Shown here in pieces: positions 1,792 through 62,921 of a DNA stretch of 64,000 bases. Each line of letters begins with the position of its first letter. Position 1 is the stretch's first letter. A program made the translations under genes and the position numbers. Under the pieces are notes generated by a model. That model had not been told where the DNA came from. It saw only the letters and a program-made list of their open reading frames with translations, and did not search any database. This DNA is from an uncultured Candidatus Saccharibacteria bacterium (GTDB lineage: Bacteria > Patescibacteriota > Minisyncoccia > Phycocordibacterales > UBA918): contig CAYXYJ010000006.1 in the NCBI GenBank assembly GCA_964469295.1, positions 4,682 to 68,681 of the forward strand, in the 5' to 3' direction.

Positions 1792-3456
1792 ATGACACGT
1801 CCGTATACTGTGGTGTGTAATACTACACCCGAAACTCTCCTGACTGATTTACTCGTGACGCGAGGGGTAATGACCCGTGATGAGCAAGAAGCATTTTGTC
1901 GTCCTGATTATGACAGGCTTCATGATCCGCTGTTGTTGCATGATATGCCGGTGGCTATCAAAAGAATTATGGCAGCCGTTGAAGCAGAAGAACATATCGC
2001 GATTTTCAGTGATTATGACTGCGATGGTATTCCTGGAGCAGTAGTGCTCCATGATTGCTTCACAGCAATTGGACACAAAAATTTTTCCAATGTTATTCCA
2101 CATCGTCACTATGAGGGATTTGGATTGAGTGTCGAAGCGGTGCACAAAATGGCTGATGCGGGAGCAACACTGATTATTACCATCGATTGTGGGACGACTG
2201 ATGTTGAGGCGGTTGCCGTGGCTCGGGAACGTGGCGTTGATGTCATCGTTACTGATCACCATGAACCGGGTGCGATTTTGCCAAACGCAGTAGCGATAGT
2301 AAACCCAAAGTTAGGTGAATACCCCTTTCCACATTTGTGCGGCGCTGGAGTGGCATTTAAAGTCGCTCAAGCGCTGGTGGCAACCGAAAAATTTACGGTA
2401 ACACCTGGTCAAGAAAAATGGTGGCTCGATATGGTCGGAATCGCGACCATTGCTGACATGGTACCACTGGTTGGTGAAAATAGAATTTTGGCTCATTTCG
2501 GATTATTGGTGTTGCGTAAATCTCGCCGACTAGGTCTGCAACAACTGTTACGAAAAAATCGAATTCCGCAACAGTATCTGACCGAAGAAGATATTGGATT
2601 TACTATTGGGCCACGTATTAATGCTGCGTCACGGATGGACGCACCGGAAGACGCGTTTCATTTATTGACCGCAACCGAAGATGTCGTTGCTGGACACTAT
2701 GTTGATCATTTAGAGCGACTGAATACTGATCGCAAAACTGCCGTTGCACTTATGACGCGCGAAATTCATGGACGAATGCGTGATCTCATTGAGGTGCCAC
2801 CGGTGATTGTAATGGGAAATCCATTATGGCGCCCGGCTCTTGTGGGGTTGGCGGCAAACAAATTAGCTGAAGAATATAATAGACCAGTCTTTTTGTGGGG
2901 ACGCGACGGAAATGAAGTGATCAAAGGTTCTTGTCGTAGTGGCAACGATGTCAGTGTTGTGAAGTTAATGGAAGCGACAGCCAGTGCATTTATTGAATTT
3001 GGTGGCCATCATGCGTCTGGCGGATTTTCGGTGTATGAACCACACATCCATACATTGCCAGAGCAGTTGATAGAGATGTACACCCAACTAGGTGCAAGCG
3101 TGACCATTGCTACCGAAACACAAGTAGATGCAGAATTACGGCTACAAGATATCTCTCGTGTGAAGCCCACACTCGCAACCCTGGCACCATTTGGCAGCGG
3201 TCATCATCGTCCCCTCTTTGCGTTTCCGTCGGTACAACCAGTAGTGGTAGAACAGTTTGGCAAGGGGAGTGAACATACCAAGCTGGTGTTCAAAGTCGAT
3301 CGTGACACTATTGAAGGGATAGCTTTTTTTACCACCCCAGATCGTTTCACTCACTCTCCCCAAATCAATGTACCGTGTACAGTGCTTGCTCATATCGAAG
3401 ATAGCTTTTTTGCAGGGCGACGGTCGACCCGTTTACGAATTGTTGATATTGTCTAA
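1792..3456 (+). CDS. recJ: single-stranded-DNA-specific exonuclease RecJ (DHH/DHHA1 family)
   Basis: 554 aa; DYDCDG and DHHEPG (DHH motif) plus GGHHASGG (DHHA1) motifs. Confidence 0.88.
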   Translation: MTRPYTVVCNTTPETLLTDLLVTRGVMTRDEQEAFCRPDYDRLHDPLLLHDMPVAIKRIMAAVEAEEHIAIFSDYDCDGIPGAVVLHDCFTAIGHKNFSNVIPHRHYEGFGLSVEAVHKMADAGATLIITIDCGTTDVEAVAVARERGVDVIVTDHHEPGAILPNAVAIVNPKLGEYPFPHLCGAGVAFKVAQALVATEKFTVTPGQEKWWLDMVGIATIADMVPLVGENRILAHFGLLVLRKSRRLGLQQLLRKNRIPQQYLTEEDIGFTIGPRINAASRMDAPEDAFHLLTATEDVVAGHYVDHLERLNTDRKTAVALMTREIHGRMRDLIEVPPVIVMGNPLWRPALVGLAANKLAEEYNRPVFLWGRDGNEVIKGSCRSGNDVSVVKLMEATASAFIEFGGHHASGGFSVYEPHIHTLPEQLIEMYTQLGASVTIATETQVDAELRLQDISRVKPTLATLAPFGSGHHRPLFAFPSVQPVVVEQFGKGSEHTKLVFKVDRDTIEGIAFFTTPDRFTHSPQINVPCTVLAHIEDSFFAGRRSTRLRIVDIV

Positions 3457-3463
3457 AAGACAC

Positions 3464-3498
3464 AAAACGGGGGGCGCCTGCGGCGCCCCCCGTTTTGT
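3464..3498 (+). terminator. intrinsic terminator after recJ
   Basis: 15-bp GC-rich stem aaaacggggggcgcc / ggcgccccccgtttt followed by T-run. Confidence 0.7.
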
Positions 3499-3512
3499 GC
3501 TATAGTGACACC

Positions 3513-3935
3513 ATGAAAAAAGTTATCTGCTTTACAGACGGGGGAGCGCGAGGTAATCCTGGCCCAGCGGCAATTGGAGTATTTATTACTGACGAACGAG
3601 GAGTCGTATTAAAAGAAGTTGGACAAACGATTGGCAACAGTACAAATAATTTTGCGGAGTACCAAGCCGTTTTAGTGGGACTCGAAACTGTAAAGCAGGT
3701 GTTAGGGAAAGCGACCAAAATTACTGAGGTAGAAATTCGTCTTGATAGCGAATTAGTGAAGAAACAATTGAATCACGAATATCAGATTAAAGAGCCAGGT
3801 CTCGTACCCATGTTTATCGCGATTCATAATCTGCGGGTTTCGAATTTTCCGCACCTCACCCTCACCCATGTGCCACGCGCAGAGAACAAAGAGGCCGACC
3901 GGTTGGTGAATGAAGCTCTTGACGGAAAGCGGTAA
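3513..3935 (+). CDS. rnhA: ribonuclease HI
   Basis: MKKVICFTDGGARGNPGPAAIG... with NNFAEYQAVL and the C-terminal D/E catalytic residues typical of RNase H type 1; start moved to ATG 3513 inside the 3495 ORF. Confidence 0.85.
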   Translation: MKKVICFTDGGARGNPGPAAIGVFITDERGVVLKEVGQTIGNSTNNFAEYQAVLVGLETVKQVLGKATKITEVEIRLDSELVKKQLNHEYQIKEPGLVPMFIAIHNLRVSNFPHLTLTHVPRAENKEADRLVNEALDGKR

Positions 3936-3994: not shown

Positions 3995-4294
3995 ATGAAA
4001 AAGAAGTACTTTACCGAACCCAAGGTGGTGTCGGTTCCGCCTGATCTTGATGTGTCAATGCTTGACACCAGGTCGCTCTGTCATGAGCATTTCAAGCTGG
4101 ATCGAGCCATCGAAAATCGTCCCGATTATTGCCTGGGCGAAGGGTTGTCAATCGCCATCGCCAAGGCAACGAAATGTGCAGTGAAAACGGAAATCGCCAA
4201 ACGAGCGATCGCGGGCGACGTCGTGGCTGTACGCTATGCAAAACAACGTAAGTGGGGCGAGAAGGTCCCCGTGAAGCTGATGGCGGCTGAATGA
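3995..4294 (+). CDS. hypothetical protein (99 aa)
   Basis: ORF preceded by a good SD (agggaga, 6 nt before ATG); no recognisable family; its 3' half begins a GC-rich block. Confidence 0.5.
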   Translation: MKKKYFTEPKVVSVPPDLDVSMLDTRSLCHEHFKLDRAIENRPDYCLGEGLSIAIAKATKCAVKTEIAKRAIAGDVVAVRYAKQRKWGEKVPVKLMAAE

Positions 4295-4619
4295 CCTATC
4301 GCCGGCGGCGGGTGAATCACCGCATCGGACACTTTCGCCACCAGGCGAATGGATCGAAGCGGTGTCAGCTGTTTGTTGCCATCAAACGGTGGTGGCGCGG
4401 ACATTGAAATGATGCGGGGCGCGCGACAGCGCGCCTCCAACCGACCGATCTAGTATCAAAAAGCCTGACGGTCTTTTCTTTTTTTGCCCAAACAATAGTT
4501 TGCGTGTAGTGGTCATTAGGTATAAGCTAAATAGCAGACATGCTTTGCGCGTCTCGAGGGGAGAACGGCATGTCGATAACAAGTAAGAAGTAACAAAAAA
4601 ACGGAGGCTATAATGCCCC

Positions 4620-4893
4620 GCGTTCACATTCCCCATCCCGCCATCCCTCGTCCCGGTGAATCCGGTGACAAGCGGCGGAGGTTTGGTCCTTTCGCCTTTC
4701 GACTCTGAACCCCCAGCGGCTTCCTCTCTGGTGACTGGTATCTAACCAGTCACCATGATGAATGCGCGGCACTGTCGGCAGACATCCGCGTACGACTGCG
4801 GGGGGCATTCCGCTCGATCTGTCCGTTCAAACGGATGGAAGGAATCGCTTCGGCGATTCGCGCCCCGGTCACATTGGCCGGGGCGATTTTGTT
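4620..4893 (+). ncRNA. candidate structured non-coding RNA (unidentified) inside a GC-rich intergenic block 4295-4907
   Basis: No ORF >85 aa in any frame over 600 bp; perfect TATAAT at ~4609-4614; several perfect hairpins (ggtgactgg/ccagtcacc ~4730-4757; gaatcgc-UUCG-gcgattc 4842-4859; cgccccgg/ccggggcg + attttg 4861-4893 = terminator-like 3' end). Confidence 0.25.
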
Positions 4894-4907
4894 ACACTAT
4901 CTAGGTA

Positions 4908-6536
4908 ATGTCTAACCATCTATTTTATAGTTCCGTCATTAGTTTTTTGATTGGAGTAATGATTGGATCATTGTACAACATTGCACTGTTCATTCCGTAC
5001 ATATTTTTAATCGGAGCATTTCTCGGGGCTCTTATCTGGCGCTCACTTCCATCAAGTGAAATAGTTTTTACAAAATTGCTTTTACTATCAATTACCGTTG
5101 TGTGCGGATTGTCAGTAGGAATGTGGCGCTATGCTATCGTAGCCGATCAATTACAAGAGACTGTTTTGAATAATGTCACCAATCAAACCGTTACCATTAT
5201 CGGGACGGTAATCAGAGAGCCAGACCGACGATTAGCGTCATCTCTCGTGACTGTAGAAACTTCTGATACACGGGTACTGGTACGAACTGACCGTAACGCA
5301 AGGGTGGCCTATGGTGATGTGATAGAAGTGACGGGGAAACTGGAAACACCAGAAGATTTTATTACTGAGTATAATCGCATCTTTCCCTATGAGGGATATT
5401 TATTGGCTCGTGGAGTGACTCATACGATGTCATTTGTGGATTTGGTTATCATTGAAAATGGATCGCCGTTTACCATACCGCGGTTTTTGAGTACGTTTAA
5501 GACGTATTTTTTATCACGGTTATCACTTGTATTGCCGGAACCGGCGTATGGACTTGGTGTCGGTATGTTGCTTGGAATCAATGGCTCATTAGGAGAACAT
5601 TTAGACAAAGTATTTCGTACGACTGGCCTTAGTCATATTGTCGTATTGTCTGGATACAACATCATGTTGGTGGTGGCGTTTACTTTATTTGTATTGGGAT
5701 TCGTCTTGCCGTGGCGGTGGCGATTGTGGCTGGCTGGGGTGATGGTAATTGTGTTTGTCGTGATGGTGGGGTATTCGCCAAGTGTCGTGCGTGCTGCGAT
5801 TATGGCGATTATATTTTTATTACTGACAAGTATTGGTCGTCCGTATGATGTGGTGCGAGCACTCGTTATTGCTGCGGGAGTGATGGTGTTTATGAACCCG
5901 TATATTTTGCGGTACGACATTGGTTTCCAATTATCTTGTATGGCGACACTGGGGCTGCTGATGATTACGCCACAACTGGAAATAGCGTTTACCAAATTAT
6001 CAGTGTGGTTATCTGTTCGTACGTTTCTGGCGTCGACGGTGGCGGCGCAGGTCGCCGTGCTTCCACTCGTGCTGTACCATATCGGACAATGGTCGCTTGT
6101 GGCGTTGCCCGCTAACGTTTTAGTGGTGCCGCTGGTTCCGTTGGCGATGCTTGGGACTATGGTGACTGGTGTGGTGTCGCTTCTGTCCGTATCACTGGCG
6201 ATACCGTTGGCGATGATTACCACACTGATTTTGAATACTATGATTATGATTGCCTCATGGCTAGCGTCGTGGCCATTTGCCGCAGTGATAGTGCCGTCAT
6301 TTCCGGCAGTATTGTTGATTCTCATGTATGGCGGTTTGGGATACTTATGGTATTGGTGGCAACAACAATCAACGCAAATAATCAATCACTCCTCAGATAA
6401 TGATATACATGGCTGGACAGTAGAAACTGAAGTCATGGTGCAGTCACGACAGTTGTTGGTAAAGAATGCCACCACCACGTCAATTGACGTGGTGGTGGCA
6501 GAATCAGATTCACCCGAACCAATATTTTTTCGGTAA
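4908..6536 (+). CDS. comEC: ComEC/Rec2 DNA-internalisation channel, N-terminal part (DUF4131 + competence domain), lacking the MBL domain
   Basis: 542-aa polytopic membrane protein; VVLSGYNIMLV ... GYSPSVVRAAIMA ... motifs characteristic of the ComEC competence domain. Confidence 0.8.
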   Translation: MSNHLFYSSVISFLIGVMIGSLYNIALFIPYIFLIGAFLGALIWRSLPSSEIVFTKLLLLSITVVCGLSVGMWRYAIVADQLQETVLNNVTNQTVTIIGTVIREPDRRLASSLVTVETSDTRVLVRTDRNARVAYGDVIEVTGKLETPEDFITEYNRIFPYEGYLLARGVTHTMSFVDLVIIENGSPFTIPRFLSTFKTYFLSRLSLVLPEPAYGLGVGMLLGINGSLGEHLDKVFRTTGLSHIVVLSGYNIMLVVAFTLFVLGFVLPWRWRLWLAGVMVIVFVVMVGYSPSVVRAAIMAIIFLLLTSIGRPYDVVRALVIAAGVMVFMNPYILRYDIGFQLSCMATLGLLMITPQLEIAFTKLSVWLSVRTFLASTVAAQVAVLPLVLYHIGQWSLVALPANVLVVPLVPLAMLGTMVTGVVSLLSVSLAIPLAMITTLILNTMIMIASWLASWPFAAVIVPSFPAVLLILMYGGLGYLWYWWQQQSTQIINHSSDNDIHGWTVETEVMVQSRQLLVKNATTTSIDVVVAESDSPEPIFFR

Positions 6537-6542
6537 TACGTA

Positions 6543-7121
6543 TTACAGCACCCGATTATTTACCACTGACCAGTTTAGATTAGTAAAGAAAGCGTCAATG
6601 TATTGCTTTTTATCAGCGGGCACATAATCACGCATATACGCGTGTTCCCACATATCAAGCGCCAAGACAATATCTAAATCAGCTAATTGTCCAATCTGCT
6701 GTTCATCTACCCACGTTTGTACTAGTTGATCAGTGTGTGGATCGTGATACAACATAGCCCAACCGATACCACGACCAAGAGCAATTCGTTTGAATGACTG
6801 CAACCAATTTTCCAAGCTACCCCATTGTCGTTCAATTAATTCTTTCAATTTCCCGTCAGGCAGTGTCGATGAACCACCTTCCAGTTGGGTAAAGTAGTAT
6901 TCATGATTACGCATGCCACAAAATTCAAACCCCAATCGTCGTTGCATCTCGGTAATAGCGTAGGCGTTTTGTTCGGGATCATTACTGTAGGCATCAATTT
7001 TTTCTTGAATAAGATTGACGTGTTTAACGTATCCAGTATACAGCCCGAGATGGATGTCGATAGATTCTTGGCTAATTCCTGTTAATGGACCGATATCAAA
7101 AGTTAATGGTTCGTAGTGCAT
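6543..7121 (-). CDS. sodA: Fe/Mn superoxide dismutase
   Basis: 192 aa; canonical DMWEHAYMRDY signature and N-terminal HH..H metal ligands. Confidence 0.9.
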   Translation of the reverse strand: MHYEPLTFDIGPLTGISQESIDIHLGLYTGYVKHVNLIQEKIDAYSNDPEQNAYAITEMQRRLGFEFCGMRNHEYYFTQLEGGSSTLPDGKLKELIERQWGSLENWLQSFKRIALGRGIGWAMLYHDPHTDQLVQTWVDEQQIGQLADLDIVLALDMWEHAYMRDYVPADKKQYIDAFFTNLNWSVVNNRVL

Positions 7122-7219: not shown

Positions 7220-8080
7220 ATGAAGTTATCTCTGGTGACGCTACGGCTGTTAGCAATAGGGGTATTAGGCACATCAATATTTTTATTACTGACACCACCC
7301 CGAGCGGTAACGATACATAACCAGCACTTGTCGGTAACATTTTTGGACGTTGGCCAAGGTGACGCGATTTTGATTGAGACGCCAGATGGGGTACAGGTGC
7401 TCATTGACGGCGGACCTGACCGCCGGGTAATGAGTGTACTCGCTGCGGAATTACCTTGGTTTGATCGCACGCTTGATTTAGTAATTGGGACACACCCGGA
7501 TCAGGATCATATTGGCGGATTAGTTGATGTGATTGCCAATTATGAGGTCGGGACCTTATTGGTTACCGAAAATCGTGGTGAAACCATGACAGCAACCGCC
7601 TATCGAGAAGCCATTAACGATGAAGCTGCTTCGGTGGTACTCGCGAGAGCCGGGCAAGTATTCGCACTCGGAGCATCAACCACCTTGCGGGTGTTTTCTC
7701 CGGCGAGTGATCCATCATTTTTGGAAAGCAATACCAGTTCGATTGTGGTGCAGGTGGTATATGGCAACACCACATTTCTATTAACCGGAGATGCTCCGGT
7801 TGGTATTGAAAACTATCTGGCAGCGACCTATGGTGCAATATTACAGAGTGATGTTTTGAAATTAGGTCACCATGGGTCAGATACGTCATCGGGTGAGTTG
7901 TTTCTCGATACGGTACAACCCACGTATGCAGTAGTTTCCGCCGGTCGTGATAACCGCTATGGGCATCCGAACCAAGAAGTGATTGATCGAGTAGTGTCAC
8001 ACCACGCTACTATCTATGCGACTGCCGAAAAGGGAAGTGTTACTTTTGTATCTGATGGTTATACGGTTTGGGTGGAGTAA
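7220..8080 (+). CDS. metallo-beta-lactamase domain protein = detached C-terminal nuclease domain of ComEC, with its own N-terminal signal/anchor
   Basis: VTFLDVGQGDAILIETPDG...THPDQDHIGGL (HxHxDH MBL motif), typical ComEC C-terminal domain; N-terminus MKLSLVTLRLLAIGVLGTSIFLLL is hydrophobic. Confidence 0.8.
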   Translation: MKLSLVTLRLLAIGVLGTSIFLLLTPPRAVTIHNQHLSVTFLDVGQGDAILIETPDGVQVLIDGGPDRRVMSVLAAELPWFDRTLDLVIGTHPDQDHIGGLVDVIANYEVGTLLVTENRGETMTATAYREAINDEAASVVLARAGQVFALGASTTLRVFSPASDPSFLESNTSSIVVQVVYGNTTFLLTGDAPVGIENYLAATYGAILQSDVLKLGHHGSDTSSGELFLDTVQPTYAVVSAGRDNRYGHPNQEVIDRVVSHHATIYATAEKGSVTFVSDGYTVWVE

Positions 8081-10710: not shown

Positions 10711-10800
10711 GATGACAGTTTAAAAATAAAGAACGCCATCCCGAAAGAACCGAGACAGCGTTCTTCTGGGATGACGTTTTGCTGTTGGTGCTGTCACTGG

Positions 10801-11328
10801 TTAAGCGGCCAGTAATTCCTCCCCCTGATCAGGCGTCCAGACCCGATATACGTGTAGGGGTAGAACCAAGGCTTGGCGGGCGATAGCATCGCCCGGGTGC
10901 ACGTGATTCACAAACAGCGTCAGTGGCAAATGGGCAGTCGTCATAGCTTGGTGAATGGCGACCGGATCGGCCCCGTCGCGCCGACCCACTCGACCGCGTC
11001 CGATTTCGACAATCGAGAATTGACGGTCGTTTTGACCGTCTTCGGCATCCCGATACCAGAGGTAATCGAGACCAAAGCGGACAAACTTGTCGCTGTTGTT
11101 CCAACCACCCTGGCCAAGCTTGTGGCAGATGAGCATATGTAGTCGCCGACTAGCGTCGAAGTTGGAACTGAGGATTCCGCCGAGTGTCAGAGGGCTGGTC
11201 AGTTTCAGTTCGGCCGTGAACGGAAGTCCGATGTTGGTGACATCACGCAGCGACGTATTCATGCCGATGATGATGTCTCGTTGGTTGTGTGGTCCGGTAA
11301 TATCACCGGTGTCGTGCCCGATAATCAT
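10801..11328 (-). CDS. hypothetical protein (175 aa), GC-elevated; weak resemblance to Zn-peptidase (H-x-T-G..D) folds only
   Basis: clean ORF with higher GC than neighbours; no confident family assignment. Confidence 0.45.
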   Translation of the reverse strand: MIIGHDTGDITGPHNQRDIIIGMNTSLRDVTNIGLPFTAELKLTSPLTLGGILSSNFDASRRLHMLICHKLGQGGWNNSDKFVRFGLDYLWYRDAEDGQNDRQFSIVEIGRGRVGRRDGADPVAIHQAMTTAHLPLTLFVNHVHPGDAIARQALVLPLHVYRVWTPDQGEELLAA

Positions 11329-34472: not shown

Positions 34473-34636
34473 CGTCTGATAAAAGATAAATAAACTGAAT
34501 AAAGTGCGACTCACTAAGAAGTATTAAAAAGTCAAAAAAGAGCGTCCCATTATTAAAATTAAAGCAGTATAGAAATCGGCCCCTCAAGGTAGAGGGGCCG
34601 AGTCGTTGAGGGACATTTCCCTCGCTGGGGCGGCGC

Positions 34637-35638
34637 TTAGGCGCCAAAGAACGTTCGGGCGAAGATTACGATGATCTGTCCGAAGCCGCGGACGACTTCG
34701 GACGAGACCCCAGTGCCAGACAGTTCGCCGTCGACCGAGACGTTGACATAGACACCGTCGACGCTGCGACCCGAGTTCGTGAGGCGCAGGGTGCCGACGA
34801 TGCCGTCCACCACCGCAAACGGATCTGCCGCCGCAAACGGGTCCGCCCCGCCGACGCCGGGGACGACCAGATTCAGCTGGTATTCCTGCTGGTGGTCAGC
34901 CGCGTCAACGTCGACAAGCGGCATGTTTCCTTCGAGGCGATATGAGATGTCCCCGCACCGAACATCGAACTCCATTTGCCAGGCGCCGTTGGCGTAGGCG
35001 TAGATGGCGTCGCCGGTCCAGCTGCAGGATTCGGTGTTGCCAAGTCCGACGTGCGGGATGGTGAAATTGTCGAACCGGACAGCGTCGAGCGCCGTGTCGT
35101 ATTCGACCGCCTCCCCGCCCGCCGCCGCTTCTTGCAGATTCTCGATCAGCCGCTGCCCGAGGGCAAGGGCCGATGCCGAGGGATTCTCGGGTGCCATGAC
35201 GAGGGAACCACCGAAATGGCTGTTCTCGGCACTGGCGGCCCCGGCGCGCAGGTAGTTTGCCAGGATGGTGGTGGCGTCCGTGTAGCCATCTTCGCCCGCC
35301 AACACGGTGAAGCCGCCGTTGTATTGCAGACGCGGGAGCGTCTGGGCGAGGTTGTTTGGGTTCTTGATGAGCCCGTTGCCGGTTACTGCACAGGCCTCAT
35401 CGACCCGCGACAGCCCGAGCCAGGCCGAGCTGCCGGCCGAGCACTCGATCGTCAGGGCCGTCCTGCCCGAGGCGTCGTCGATGGTGCCGGTAAACCTGTC
35501 ATGCTGGTCGCTGTCGAAAAGGGACGGTTGGTTCACCGTCAGGGTGATATCGGCCGTGACTGGGACGGTCTGGGCCATGATGGGGCCAGCCAGGATAGCC
35601 AGAATCACGCCGGCAACGGCCAAGAAGAGTTTGGACAT
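34637..35638 (-). CDS. secreted hypothetical protein (333 aa), strongly GC-anomalous (~60%+ GC), antisense to the spc operon
   Basis: signal peptide MSKLFLAVAGVILAILAGPIMAQT; Gly/Ala/Asp-rich; local GC far above flanking ribosomal genes; hairpin cggcccctc/gaggggccg just past its stop. Confidence 0.65.
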   Translation of the reverse strand: MSKLFLAVAGVILAILAGPIMAQTVPVTADITLTVNQPSLFDSDQHDRFTGTIDDASGRTALTIECSAGSSAWLGLSRVDEACAVTGNGLIKNPNNLAQTLPRLQYNGGFTVLAGEDGYTDATTILANYLRAGAASAENSHFGGSLVMAPENPSASALALGQRLIENLQEAAAGGEAVEYDTALDAVRFDNFTIPHVGLGNTESCSWTGDAIYAYANGAWQMEFDVRCGDISYRLEGNMPLVDVDAADHQQEYQLNLVVPGVGGADPFAAADPFAVVDGIVGTLRLTNSGRSVDGVYVNVSVDGELSGTGVSSEVVRGFGQIIVIFARTFFGA

Positions 35639-35783
35639 TATTTCCCTTTCCTTTTGTTTGAGAGGCACTTCGGTCAAAGAACCAAAGACCAAGAGCCGGC
35701 GGCAACAGTATCAACAATATATACGTTTGTCAATGGTACGGTACGGCGTCCTCACTGCGGGTTCGGCTTCGCTCCTAAAAACC

Positions 35784-56127: not shown

Positions 56128-56651
56128 TCTTCGTCAGTTGATGAGGGGGGAACTTTCAATAATAAGTATAGCATAAAGTATGCAAAAGTCAAGCATTTCA
56201 AGCAGAATAGGCTTTTTTTTGGTAAAATAGCGCTATGGAATACCTCTCTACTCCAACAGAGCAAACAATCAATGCTGGTACTTGCTTAGCATCGTATGTG
56301 GGTGAGTAAAGCACCACTAACCTTTAAGGAGTTTTCTGAGATTATGGACAAGATACCCGGTGATATTAAGAAAGTTCAATCAACAACAGAGAAACACGCT
56401 TATATTGCACCTATCTTCTTGAACTTTTCTGTAAGTGCAAAAAAGGTAGAAAATTACACGTTAAAACAGCCTTTTGAGGGGCTGTCTTAACGAGAAATTA
56501 TCTGAATGTGGAAATCATTGAACGAAGTTAAAACCTCATTGATTGAAATGGAGTGTGCAAATTTCTTGAAAGTAGTGGATTTGTGGTGAAAAAAGAAAAG
56601 CCCCACGAGTGTGAATCGTGTGACTCTTCTCGTGAGGCCCGCAGGTCGCCG

Positions 56652-57239
56652 TTAGGCGGCCTTGGCGAACATCGCATGGCTCGGGAGATGCTTGAGCGCC
56701 ATGGCCAGCGCCGTGATGGCCGTCATGATCTCGAGCATCTTCCATGCCGGGATCTCGAGCATGACGTCGGCCTTGCCATCGGTCGAGTCGGTCGAGACAG
56801 ACTCGAGTTCCTCGAGCGTCGAGCAGATCTTCTCGCCATCATAGTAGGTGGCGTCGTGCCGCCCGAAGGTCGACTCGAGCACGTGCTTGGCGAAACCATC
56901 CCAGTCCTGCGGCGTCGGTATCGGCCGCAGCATGCCCTCGCCCAGATACTTCTTGAAGGCGTCGAGCACGAGGTGCGTGATGCCGCCGTCCGGCTTGTAG
57001 GACTGGAACGGATCGGCGGACGTGAGGCGGGCATCAAAGCCGGCCATGGCGGCCGTTTCCGACATGTAGGTGTCGCTGTTGTTGCTGTTGAAGATCGGTT
57101 CACCCGTTTCGGAGTCGCTGTCCTGCTCGAGGTAGCTCACGGTGTAGACCTTGAGGCCGTGGTATCCGGCGTAGCCGTCCGTGACGTCGAGATGGAGCAT
57201 GTCGCCGTTATCGAAGGTATGCGATTTCAGATCGGTCAT
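56652..57239 (-). CDS. hypothetical protein (~195 aa), GC-anomalous, adjacent to tmRNA 3' end
   Basis: start MTDLKSHTF at 57239; ~60% GC gives rise to overlapping spurious ORFs on both strands. Confidence 0.5.
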   Translation of the reverse strand: MTDLKSHTFDNGDMLHLDVTDGYAGYHGLKVYTVSYLEQDSDSETGEPIFNSNNSDTYMSETAAMAGFDARLTSADPFQSYKPDGGITHLVLDAFKKYLGEGMLRPIPTPQDWDGFAKHVLESTFGRHDATYYDGEKICSTLEELESVSTDSTDGKADVMLEIPAWKMLEIMTAITALAMALKHLPSHAMFAKAA

Positions 57240-57384: not shown

Positions 57385-57781
57385 TGGTGGAGATGGGGAG
57401 AATTGAACCCCCGTCCGAATCATGGTGTCCGCGTGACTCTACAGTGCGTAGACTTCTTTTTGATTTAAACAATTGACCTAGAAAAAAGACAAAACAGTCA
57501 ATCATCGAGTTTTAAGAAATTCAGTTCCTTATGAAAACGACACAAGAAACCAGAGCTTCATGGCTATTTCACCCGCATCCCGTATGAAGCCTCGGGGAAG
57601 CGAGCGTCGCAGCGGCGAGCGTAAGGTTACGCTACAGCGGGTGCGAATCCAAACGCGTTCGCGTAAGGACTTGGTACGCTATTCTTTGCACGTACAGGTA
57701 CCTGAGTTTTTCTAAGTGATCTCAGGCGGCACTTACACTGCACACGGGGACGACGCATAACCGTCGATGCCTAGCATCCCC
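57385..57781 (-). ncRNA. ssrA: transfer-messenger RNA (tmRNA, SsrA), ~397 nt, CCA encoded
   Basis: minus-strand reads 5'-GGGGATGCTAGGCATCGACGG...GGACGGGGGTTCAATTCTCCCCATCTCCACCA-3' (tRNA-like acceptor/T-arm); internal tag frame GCAAAGAAT...GCACCCGCTGTAGCGTAA = (AKNSVPSPY)ANAFGFAPAVA*. Confidence 0.85.
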
Positions 57782-62847: not shown

Positions 62848-62921
62848 TCCGTGTGCCTGGACTCGAACCAGGGGCCACAGAGGTATAAGCTCTGCGCTCT
62901 AACCAACTGAGCTACACACGG
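62848..62921 (-). tRNA. tRNA with anticodon UAU (AUA-reading tRNA-Ile-like), 74 nt, no encoded CCA
   Basis: minus strand: CCGTGTG-TA-GCTC-AGTTGGTTA-GAGC-G-CAGAG-CTTATAC-CTCTG-TGGCC-CCTGG-TTCGAGT-CCAGG-CACACGG-A; perfect 7/4/5/5-bp stems, U33, A37, A73. Confidence 0.75.

Follow-up and report, generated by a model that had tools for sequence, protein, structure and literature searches.

The window analysed here is a stretch of 64,000 nt from an uncultured Candidatus Saccharibacteria bacterium (contig CAYXYJ010000006.1, positions 4,682 to 68,681), and its element of interest is a GC-rich block (4295-4907) directly in front of comEC, the gene of the DNA-uptake channel. With moderate confidence we read this block not as one RNA but as three elements in a row: the end of the upstream operon, a unit made up of a small open reading frame (ORF) and a structured RNA, and the promoter of comEC. 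The middle element (4500-4891) would be, to judge from its conservation and with a similar degree of confidence, a self-contained and lineage-specific transcription unit that gives rise to an RNA of about 355 nt. It is found in no Rfam, Pfam, NCBIfam, PHROGs or PADLOC family and represents a new family. The interpretation that we favour, and hold to be rather more probable than improbable, is that of an autonomous and structurally protected mRNA for a small protein, in which the fold of the 3′ part is coupled to translation termination and the terminator shields a leaderless comEC promoter. Possibly the unit is also a candidate for a dual-function RNA.

Conservation of the unit in related genomes

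The window itself belongs to a Paceibacteria genome. The best homologues of the ComEC protein encoded in the window come from metagenome bins of Parcubacteria/Paceibacteria and share 44-52% identity with it. These relatives surfaced only with an alignment of ComEC sequences, while a genome scan with the single ComEC sequence returned no relatives. Exact-protein look-ups of the window ComEC, of the 99-aa ORF preceding the block (ORF99) and of the called ComEC (P0001) gave no record. The order RecJ, RNase H, gap, ComEC, superoxide dismutase (SOD, on the minus strand) and metallo-beta-lactamase (MBL) is conserved in more than 40 loci, and about ten related lineages combine RecJ and RNase H, a gap of 0.4-1.0 kb and ComEC. 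Between RNase H and ComEC the gap measures 0.8-1.0 kb in the closest clade and 40-500 bp in farther relatives. Public gene calls in the gap of the closest clade comprise either nothing or long domain-less ORFs on the minus strand.

A DNA profile (nhmmer) built from twelve relatives, with the window excluded, matches the window at 4480-4725 on the plus strand with an E-value of 4.9e-8. The same profile finds no other match in the window and none in the loci with a short gap. Therefore the window holds a diverged member of a lineage-specific element. When the window block was used as a single nhmmer query against the loci no match was obtained, and tblastx from the window gave two weak matches only, none of them in the frame of the small ORF. 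In the loci examined the unit always lies directly 5′ of comEC and on the same strand, as a single copy at a fixed syntenic position. No similarity of the block to phages or plasmids was found, and literature searches on small RNAs and small proteins of the candidate phyla radiation (CPR) revealed nothing on this element.

Promoter, 5′ untranslated region and start signals

The unit promoter is predicted at 4500-4528 on the plus strand, with TTGCGT as -35 element (4500-4505), a spacer of 17 nt and TAAGCT as -10 element (4523-4528); transcription would start at about 4535-4537. A consensus promoter scan of the window did not list this promoter, which was found by comparison with the relatives. 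These carry TTGCAT, TTGCAA or TTGCGT, 17 nt and TAnnnT, located 102-115 nt ahead of the ATG of the small ORF. From this promoter an RNA would be made that consists of a 5′ hairpin, an open A-rich linker, a Shine-Dalgarno (SD) sequence, the coding region of a 31-aa peptide, the structural elements P1, P2 and P3, and a terminator.

The 5′-terminal hairpin (4537-4574) has an outer stem (4537-4543/4568-4574) in which GACAUGC pairs with GCAUGUC, and a purine-rich GGGGAG apex. In relatives, as judged by eye and unscored, the outer stem is formed by different sequences, namely GGCAUG/CAUGCC, CACUCGC/GCGAGUG, GGUGC/GCACC and GGCGC/GCGCC. The stretch between this hairpin and the SD is open and A-rich. 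The SD itself (GGAGG, 4603-4607) is located 5 nt ahead of the ATG at 4613, and a GGAG/GAGG element is present 5-10 nt ahead of the ATG in all 13 homologues. A perfect TATAAT at about 4609, to which the sequence-only reading had drawn attention, does exist (4609-4614), but it is composed of the spacer between SD and start plus the start codon and is kept as TATAAT in no relative. As a promoter it was rejected.

The small ORF and its coding potential

It had also been stated that no credible ORF occurs in any frame of the block. This does not hold: two short plus-strand ORFs, 4291-4407 (38 aa) and 4613-4708 (31 aa), have positional homologues in the relatives. The first one belongs to the upstream operon and is treated below. 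The second one is led by the SD and encodes MPRVHIPHPAIPRPGESGDKRRRFGPFAFRL. Homologous ORFs of 31-43 aa were found in 12 loci, examples being MPQSVPSHNPTVDLSSFGDGGDELLCKKTFWIRWR and MPLLIVVPSNCVPMVGKSGDSSPHNEFLFFNH; in common they start with M(P), carry G-x-x-G-D in the middle and have an aromatic C-terminus. The C-termini are aromatic/basic (FWIRWR, FLFF, FAFRL) and follow an acidic/Gly motif; in one subclade the peptide consensus reads ..VDLSSFGDGGDELL.KKTFWIRWR.

Judging from the pattern of conservation, this family is likely to be translated, and we think the same of the window's own copy with somewhat less confidence. An SD, an ATG and a frame that stays open for 21-43 codons are present in 13/13 homologues, with L173 (21 codons) as the only locus below 31. 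The density of off-frame stop codons, 0.03-0.07 per codon, gives a frame of at least 31 codons a chance of about 0.2 per lineage to stay open. In the 'FGDGGDE' subclade the ratio of non-synonymous to synonymous differences (pN/pS, calculated with the NG86 method) in the ORF frame is 0.18 (10 synonymous versus 6 non-synonymous differences, p=8e-4), 0.16 and 0.44, with p-values from 8e-4 to 0.04, while the shifted frames give 1.1-11.6. Third positions vary even within the codons of the G-x-x-G-D motif (GGT/GGG, GAT/GAC). Neither the small-ORF segment nor the 5′ untranslated region (UTR) has an excess of RNA structure (z about 0), and the stop codon is located 1-5 nt ahead of the first 3′ stem in the homologues in spite of their varying ORF length.

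Two called proteins among 5.8e9 match the profile of the small-ORF family, and an exhaustive HMM search of 1.84e9 representatives returned the same two. A search of all small proteins against Pfam, NCBIfam, PHROGs and PADLOC gave DUF465 as the only match, in the upstream gene of L002. The 21-aa ORF of L173 (MFGSDVTIESVCLPPPPIFSR) lies inside a recognisable unit (441-872). Another relative, L110 (2119-3000), has a different small ORF in this place, an SD-led hydrophobic one of 32 aa (MCHLTTGLFCCILGIGGPAGSLAILGGGHEGA) behind a perfect 15-bp 5′ hairpin; the unit profile misses this locus.

The structured 3′ region

Right behind the small ORF begins a region (4709-4891) which we regard, on the basis of folding and comparison, as a conserved and lineage-specific structured RNA. 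Its domain P1 (4710-4805) has a closing stem (4710-4714/4801-4805 and 4716-4719/4796-4799) around the hairpins 4729-4739/4745-4755 and 4763-4769/4786-4792, and this closing stem begins 2 nt past the stop codon. Two more hairpins follow at 4818-4859, P2 (4818-4826/4831-4839) and P3 (4842-4848/4853-4859, with a UUCG loop), and finally an intrinsic terminator (4861-4891) with an 11-bp stem, nine of whose pairs are GC, and AUUUUG behind it. The perfect stems described in the sequence-only reading are thus present, among them the 11-bp stem 4729-4739/4745-4755 and the UUCG hairpin, and so is the terminator (4861-4871/4875-4885 plus AUUUUG), which ends 17-22 nt ahead of the comEC ATG at 4908.

Every homologue follows a common plan: a closing stem adjacent to the stop codon encloses one to four hairpins, one or two more hairpins follow, and a terminator concludes the region. 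A GC stem equivalent to P1, made of different sequences, is found next to the stop codon in 10 other homologues and is anchored at +1 to +5 after it. At least five pairing sequences form the closing stem, namely GCCCGAG/CUCGGGC, GGCCCAG/CUGGGCC, GGCCCGG/CCGGGCC, GCCCCGCC/GGCGGGGC and GCCCCAAGGC/GCCUUGGGGC. At the position of P2/P3 the relatives have one or two hairpins (CCGGC-CAA-GCCGG, CUGGC-UAA-GCCAG, GGUCAC..GUGACC), which are presumably homologous to those of the window. An alternative 12-bp helix with two G-U pairs can be drawn in the window between 4843-4854 and 4877-4888. It joins the UUCG hairpin (5′ arm plus loop) to the 3′ arm of the terminator and would compete with the latter; it is not conserved in relatives.

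The 3′ region is more stable than its dinucleotide-preserving shuffles in 13/13 homologues (z -3.3 to -7.5), and without the terminator z still amounts to -1.2 to -5.5, the window having -5.5. Composition alone is therefore insufficient as a cause. Covariation was scored in a sequence-only MAFFT alignment of seven related sequences with the structure taken from one of them, the window being too diverged to be included. In this alignment 83% of the cells pair, compared with 31-46% when the partners are slid, and 12 pairs are changed on both sides against 4.2+-1.6 in shuffles (0/500). The closing stem (helix 1) is 94% paired and has three pairs changed on both sides, the terminator (helix 8) is 90% paired and has four of them.

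Selection appears to act on the sequence as well. The per-site difference is 0.13-0.21 in promoter and 5′ UTR, 0.09-0.28 in the initial 130 nt of the 3′ region and 0.09-0.39 in the untranslated parts overall, whereas the synonymous sites of ComEC differ by 0.46-0.74 in the same pairs, so that the untranslated parts change 2-5 times more slowly. From this we infer that purifying selection acts on the untranslated parts, and does so not only in the stems but also in loops and linkers. Because not only the stems seem to be selected, the unit can be regarded as a candidate dual-function RNA rather than as a merely stabilised mRNA.

The suggestion that the block is a lineage-specific structured RNA therefore stands for 4709-4891, where stability exceeds the shuffles in all homologues and compensatory changes occur, but it does not apply to the whole 600 bp, and what remains of it forms the 3′ portion of a predicted transcript with a conserved SD-led small ORF. 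In such a transcript the 5′ hairpin and the array of 3′ hairpins would protect the two ends. The closing stem of P1 would have to be opened by any ribosome that reaches the stop codon and terminates there, which would couple translation to the folding of the 3′ domain.

Small-protein mRNA or non-coding RNA

Several observations weigh against a translated and structurally coupled mRNA. The coding signal stems from the 'FGDGGDE' subclade and not from the subclade of the window, in which the one usable pair (L002-L168) has a pN/pS of 0.83 and no synonymous excess. L002 and L172, two distant members, have exactly the same nucleotides in the codons for ETPSVGMTGD (30 nt; L002 3576-3605, L172 2266-2295, L168 2251-2280), and these codons can form a hairpin CCCGUC..GACGGG, so that a constraint at the RNA level could explain their conservation. 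With 16-32% identity, the peptide of the window diverges more than any other member, and AF2 predicts no confident fold (pLDDT 65) and no secondary structure for it. As to the RNA, RNAalifold recovered just four inner pairs of the 5′ hairpin from the MAFFT alignment of the 5′ UTR; neither the 5′ UTR nor the window's subclade could be aligned well enough for a scoring of outer stems. About 30% of the shuffles likewise have a long-range helix where the 3′ region begins, and this helix therefore rests on covariation and not on folding alone. Furthermore, the independent lineages number only about 8-10, and kinship among the sequences inflates the shuffle statistics.

Some of these points also fit an RNA at 4500-4891 that is purely non-coding, either a trans-acting small RNA (sRNA) or a protein-binding one. 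The ORF would then be incidental, or untranslated at least in the window's subclade, and 'GGUGAC' would be part of a hairpin and not stand for Gly-Asp codons. Apart from the missing synonymous excess in the window-subclade pair, the stem formed by ten identical codons and the lacking AF2 fold, this explanation would account for untranslated parts that are more conserved than the ORF and for a peptide alignment with a mean column identity of 34%. We nevertheless consider it unlikely. SD and ATG are found at a fixed distance from the promoter in 13/13 homologues, the frame is open for 31-43 codons in all lineages except L173 despite frequent off-frame stops, and pN/pS values of 0.16-0.44 are restricted to the ORF frame. 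The ORF segment has a z of about 0, and the stop always precedes P1 by 1-5 nt whatever the ORF length. Finally, pairing of the RNA with the 5′ end of comEC is not significant (z -1.9 to +1.0) and neither consistent nor positionally conserved.

The probable comEC promoter and leaderless starts

Behind the terminator an extended -10 element, TGTTACACT (4890-4898, plus strand), is located 9 nt ahead of the comEC ATG at 4908. A TGnTACA[AC]T motif lies about 7 nt ahead of the comEC ATG in 19/25 related loci, including most of those which have a gap of 40-500 bp and lack the unit; some relatives (L014, L019, L086, L090) miss it. In the series L005-L015 and L085-L094 the position concerned is near 2985-3001. 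comEC has no SD. Among the 59 long ORFs of the window, whose start sites were crudely set at the first in-frame start codon, 21 have TAnnnT 5-9 nt ahead of the start (e.g. SOD, MBL, 8512, 38566, 41281, 47421, 54430, 63281) and three have an SD-like motif. TGTTACACT is therefore probably comEC's own promoter, and the comEC mRNA leaderless or nearly so: an extended -10 kept without the unit, the missing SD and the leaderless pattern in the window are most simply explained in this way. comEC would then be transcribed from its own extended -10 as a leaderless mRNA, and the terminator would keep the transcription of the unit out of this promoter.

This bears on the idea, put forward in the sequence-only reading, of a riboswitch-like leader of comEC. 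A leader shares its transcript with the gene and has no promoter in between, but here the extended -10 intervenes between terminator and ATG, and most relatives without the unit keep it too. In the more elaborate form of this idea, translation of a leader peptide opens the P1 stem and shifts the folding, and the terminator at 4861-4891 is read through from the strong upstream promoter. The constant position of the unit directly 5′ of comEC on the same strand and the stop codon abutting a long-range stem would suit such a mechanism. So would the stretch behind the stop codon, which resembles the 5′ arm of the terminator and for which RNAalifold proposed pairing with the terminator 3′ arm, and the ability of 4843-4854 to pair with 4877-4888 instead of the terminator. 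While the terminator is conserved, however, the alternative pairings occur in single sequences and are not conserved across subclades. Unlike in known attenuators, hairpins separate the alternating segments, which are 60-100 nt from each other, and no single regulatory amino acid is specified by a run of codons in the peptide. An mRNA produced by read-through would have no obvious translation start because comEC lacks an SD, and the extended -10 after the terminator has the spacing of a leaderless start. For these reasons a cis-acting leader is distinctly improbable in our opinion, and we prefer a unit that ends at its terminator.

It is more doubtful still that the unit is a new dual-function RNA of CPR bacteria (Paceibacteria) whose peptide and/or 3′ domain controls the RecJ/RNase H/ComEC cluster. 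In a variant of this proposal the peptide would be a competence signal with a role like that of ComS or CSP in streptococci, a possibility for which only the position of the unit and the shape of the peptide speak.

The block lies between the 99-aa ORF (3995-4294) and comEC (4908-6536). Further upstream are RecJ (1792-3456) and RNase H (3495-3935), and comEC is followed by SOD (6543-7121, minus strand) and a separate MBL gene (7220-8080); L28 and an M50 peptidase are other neighbours. ComEC is split throughout the clade: DUF4131 and the Competence domain form one gene and the metallo-beta-lactamase domain another, and the two are separated by the Fe/Mn SOD gene, which has the opposite orientation.

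The presumed end of the upstream operon

The part of the block ahead of the unit is best described together with the 99-aa ORF (3995-4294, plus strand). This ORF has no Pfam match and a homologue in L093 according to tblastn, and its stop overlaps the next start in an ATGA. The gene that follows RNase H differs by lineage: L002, L168, L004, L085 and L090 have DUF465 in this place, the window the 99-aa ORF. The C-terminus of the latter, ..MAAE*, recurs in the DUF465 genes of L002 (2918-3117) and L168, and so does its ATGA overlap. As the last residues and about 15 nt of these genes are kept in the window, a replacement of the 5′ part is suggested.

The start within the ATGA overlap belongs to a 38-aa ORF (4291-4407, plus strand; MTYRRRRVNH...RWWRGH), which aligns to its relatives up to an invariant W..G and then stops. 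At the same position the relatives have a basic ORF of 67-70 aa ending in ..LTPTK (L001 4325-4534, L164 1766-1975, L168 1793-1999, L169 1759-1968, L171 1153-1356, L002 3114-3320, L084 2266-2478), with the consensus M.RR..QLR....RREM..LA.RC.HQG.ALWRG..V.A.LLP.W.VRIW......RVV.LRSLTPTK. Since the window copy ends after the conserved WRG, it is a truncated version. We regard the 67-70 aa family as coding on comparative grounds, as its members are stop-free and have pN/pS values of 0.40-0.61, the plus frame being the best of six. Its profile matched 0 called proteins among 5.8e9 sequences. The region 4291-4490 would thus contain the truncated gene of a small basic protein, whose translation would be coupled to that of the 99-aa ORF through the ATGA overlap.

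Directly after the 38-aa ORF follows a GC hairpin, GGCGCGC-GACA-GCGCGCC (4418-4435, plus strand), and an equivalent hairpin, GGGGCGCG..CGCGCCCC, is found at the same place in L001, L002, L084, L164, L168, L169, L004, L170 and L173. At 4459-4486 on the plus strand we read from the sequence a weak hairpin, with a stem of three GC/GU pairs plus A-U pairs, and a long T-run. It is probably the terminator of the upstream operon: at this position the relatives have a clean terminator of the GGCTGG..CCAGCC+TTTT type, of which the window version is a degenerate form.

The truncated ORF is the part of the block for which the proposed relic of a decayed GC-rich gene holds, with 38 aa compared with 67-70 aa in the relatives. 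That the whole block consists of decayed GC-rich genes, with the hairpins as a by-product of GC composition, is in contrast highly improbable. Chains of minus-strand ORFs do cross the block, and public gene callers have placed minus-strand genes of 144-191 aa over the equivalent regions of relatives, but these frames contain stops, have a worse pN/pS than the plus frame and lack Pfam domains. In 4480-4891 the order of promoter, SD, ORF, hairpins and terminator is preserved in at least ten lineages, this stretch evolves more slowly than synonymous sites, and the stability of the fold exceeds that of dinucleotide-preserving shuffles. Decay of 4480-4891 is thus refuted by conservation. A minus-strand gene over the block was rejected on the grounds of its stops and its pN/pS. 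The domain-less public calls of 144-191 aa (L164 1522-2097, L002 2749-3183, L173 428-865), which partly overlap RNase H, look spurious.

Composition and searches for known RNA families

The GC content was correctly described as above the local average, with 0.553 in 4295-4907 and 0.460 in the window; among 2536 windows of 613 nt, only 53 reach this value (top 2%). It is unevenly distributed, being 0.63 in 4295-4450, 0.41 in 4451-4612 and about 0.61 in 4613-4892, and two GC-rich parts flanking an AT-richer middle suggest more than one element. As a whole, 4295-4907 folds more stably than its dinucleotide shuffles whichever strand is taken (z -5.9 for one, -6.0 for the other).

In agreement with the earlier impression that RNase P, tmRNA and SRP do not match, the scan with Rfam 15 detected no family at the gathering threshold in the block. 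At relaxed E-values the best block matches reach at most 21 bits, compared with thresholds of 40-112, and all of them lie on the terminator. For the window and four relatives no model matched the unit at E-values up to 5-10, L084 giving nothing at E<=5, and ARAGORN found no tRNA- or tmRNA-like element in the block. Across the whole 64 kb only a tmRNA (57385-57781, minus strand, 93.8 bits) and one tRNA (62848-62921, minus strand) were found at gathering level, the GC content of the tmRNA (0.50) being below that of the block.

Three other blocks of the window are GC-rich (34576-35650, 56576-57225 and 10776-11075; 0.57-0.64 compared with 0.46). They contain long overlapping ORFs on both strands, no Pfam domain and no Rfam match, and 56576-57225 adjoins the tmRNA gene.

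Comparison with known systems

Tiny genomes and a presumed dependence on imported DNA characterise the CPR bacteria, whose small proteins, regulatory RNAs and expression signals are, to our knowledge, almost unexplored. About 1% of the 64-kb window, without any plus-strand gene call, holds two unannotated small-protein families and a structured RNA beside the gene of a DNA-uptake channel. As the unit appears to combine a long 5′ UTR with a canonical SD, in a genome whose starts seem often to be leaderless, it is a natural test case for the choice of the initiation mode. If the RNA or the peptide did act on the RecJ/RNase H/ComEC cluster, this would be a first regulatory handle on DNA uptake in the group; otherwise the unit is a clean new family for Rfam and for small-protein catalogues, and a warning with regard to spurious antisense ORF calls over such blocks.

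The raiA motif is a GC-rich structured RNA of Rfam which is associated with competence genes. Like RNAs of this type, the unit is a GC-rich, hairpin-dense and conserved block in a genome of lower GC content, situated beside a competence gene. However, no Rfam model matches the window or the four relatives, and the unit appears to contain a selected ORF in addition.

The attenuators trpL, tnaC and ermCL likewise have a short SD-led ORF on the same strand, whose stop abuts a stem, and a terminator before the next gene. The unit differs from them in that a promoter-like extended -10 separates the terminator from comEC and persists in most ORF-less relatives. Moreover, no conserved alternative of terminator and antiterminator was found here, and 150-220 nt with three to six hairpins lie between ORF and terminator.

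Another group with a small ORF in an unusually structured mRNA, including a 5′ hairpin and long-range stems, are the type I toxin mRNAs (hok, tisB, aapA). It could be asked whether the small ORF likewise encodes a bioactive peptide, either a toxin of this kind or an exported signal peptide, with the RNA structure keeping translation repressed or timed. The apparently stable, highly structured mRNA, the aromatic/basic C-termini and the neighbourhood to the DNA-uptake channel gene would agree with this, and the competence pheromone precursors ComS and ComC are small peptides of similar size. But the peptides are not hydrophobic and have no transmembrane stretch, a canonical double-glycine leader register is absent, and among the neighbouring genes (RecJ, RNase H, ComEC, SOD, MBL, L28, M50 peptidase) none was recognised that would serve export, processing or reception. 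No conserved antisense promoter or terminator was found either; a minus-strand terminator-like site (4619-4604) needs an A-run which the relatives lack. In addition, the unit is single-copy and syntenic and not mobile or multi-copy. We consider a bioactive peptide to be hardly probable at all. A type I toxin-antitoxin system was rejected because of the absent hydrophobic stretch and the non-conserved minus-strand site.

Bacterial dual-function RNAs, which encode a small protein and also act as RNA, are represented by SgrS/SgrT, RNAIII/delta-haemolysin and SR1/SR1P. With these the unit has in common a length of about 350 nt, a putative promoter and terminator of its own, an SD-led ORF of 30-45 codons, and structured non-coding segments which change more slowly than the synonymous sites of the ORF. 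In contrast to them this candidate has no sequence or Rfam relationship and no identified target or seed pairing, and it belongs to a CPR bacterium that seems to make frequent use of leaderless mRNAs. Among the systems compared, the unit most resembles dual-function RNAs of this type or mRNAs of small proteins with regulatory UTRs.

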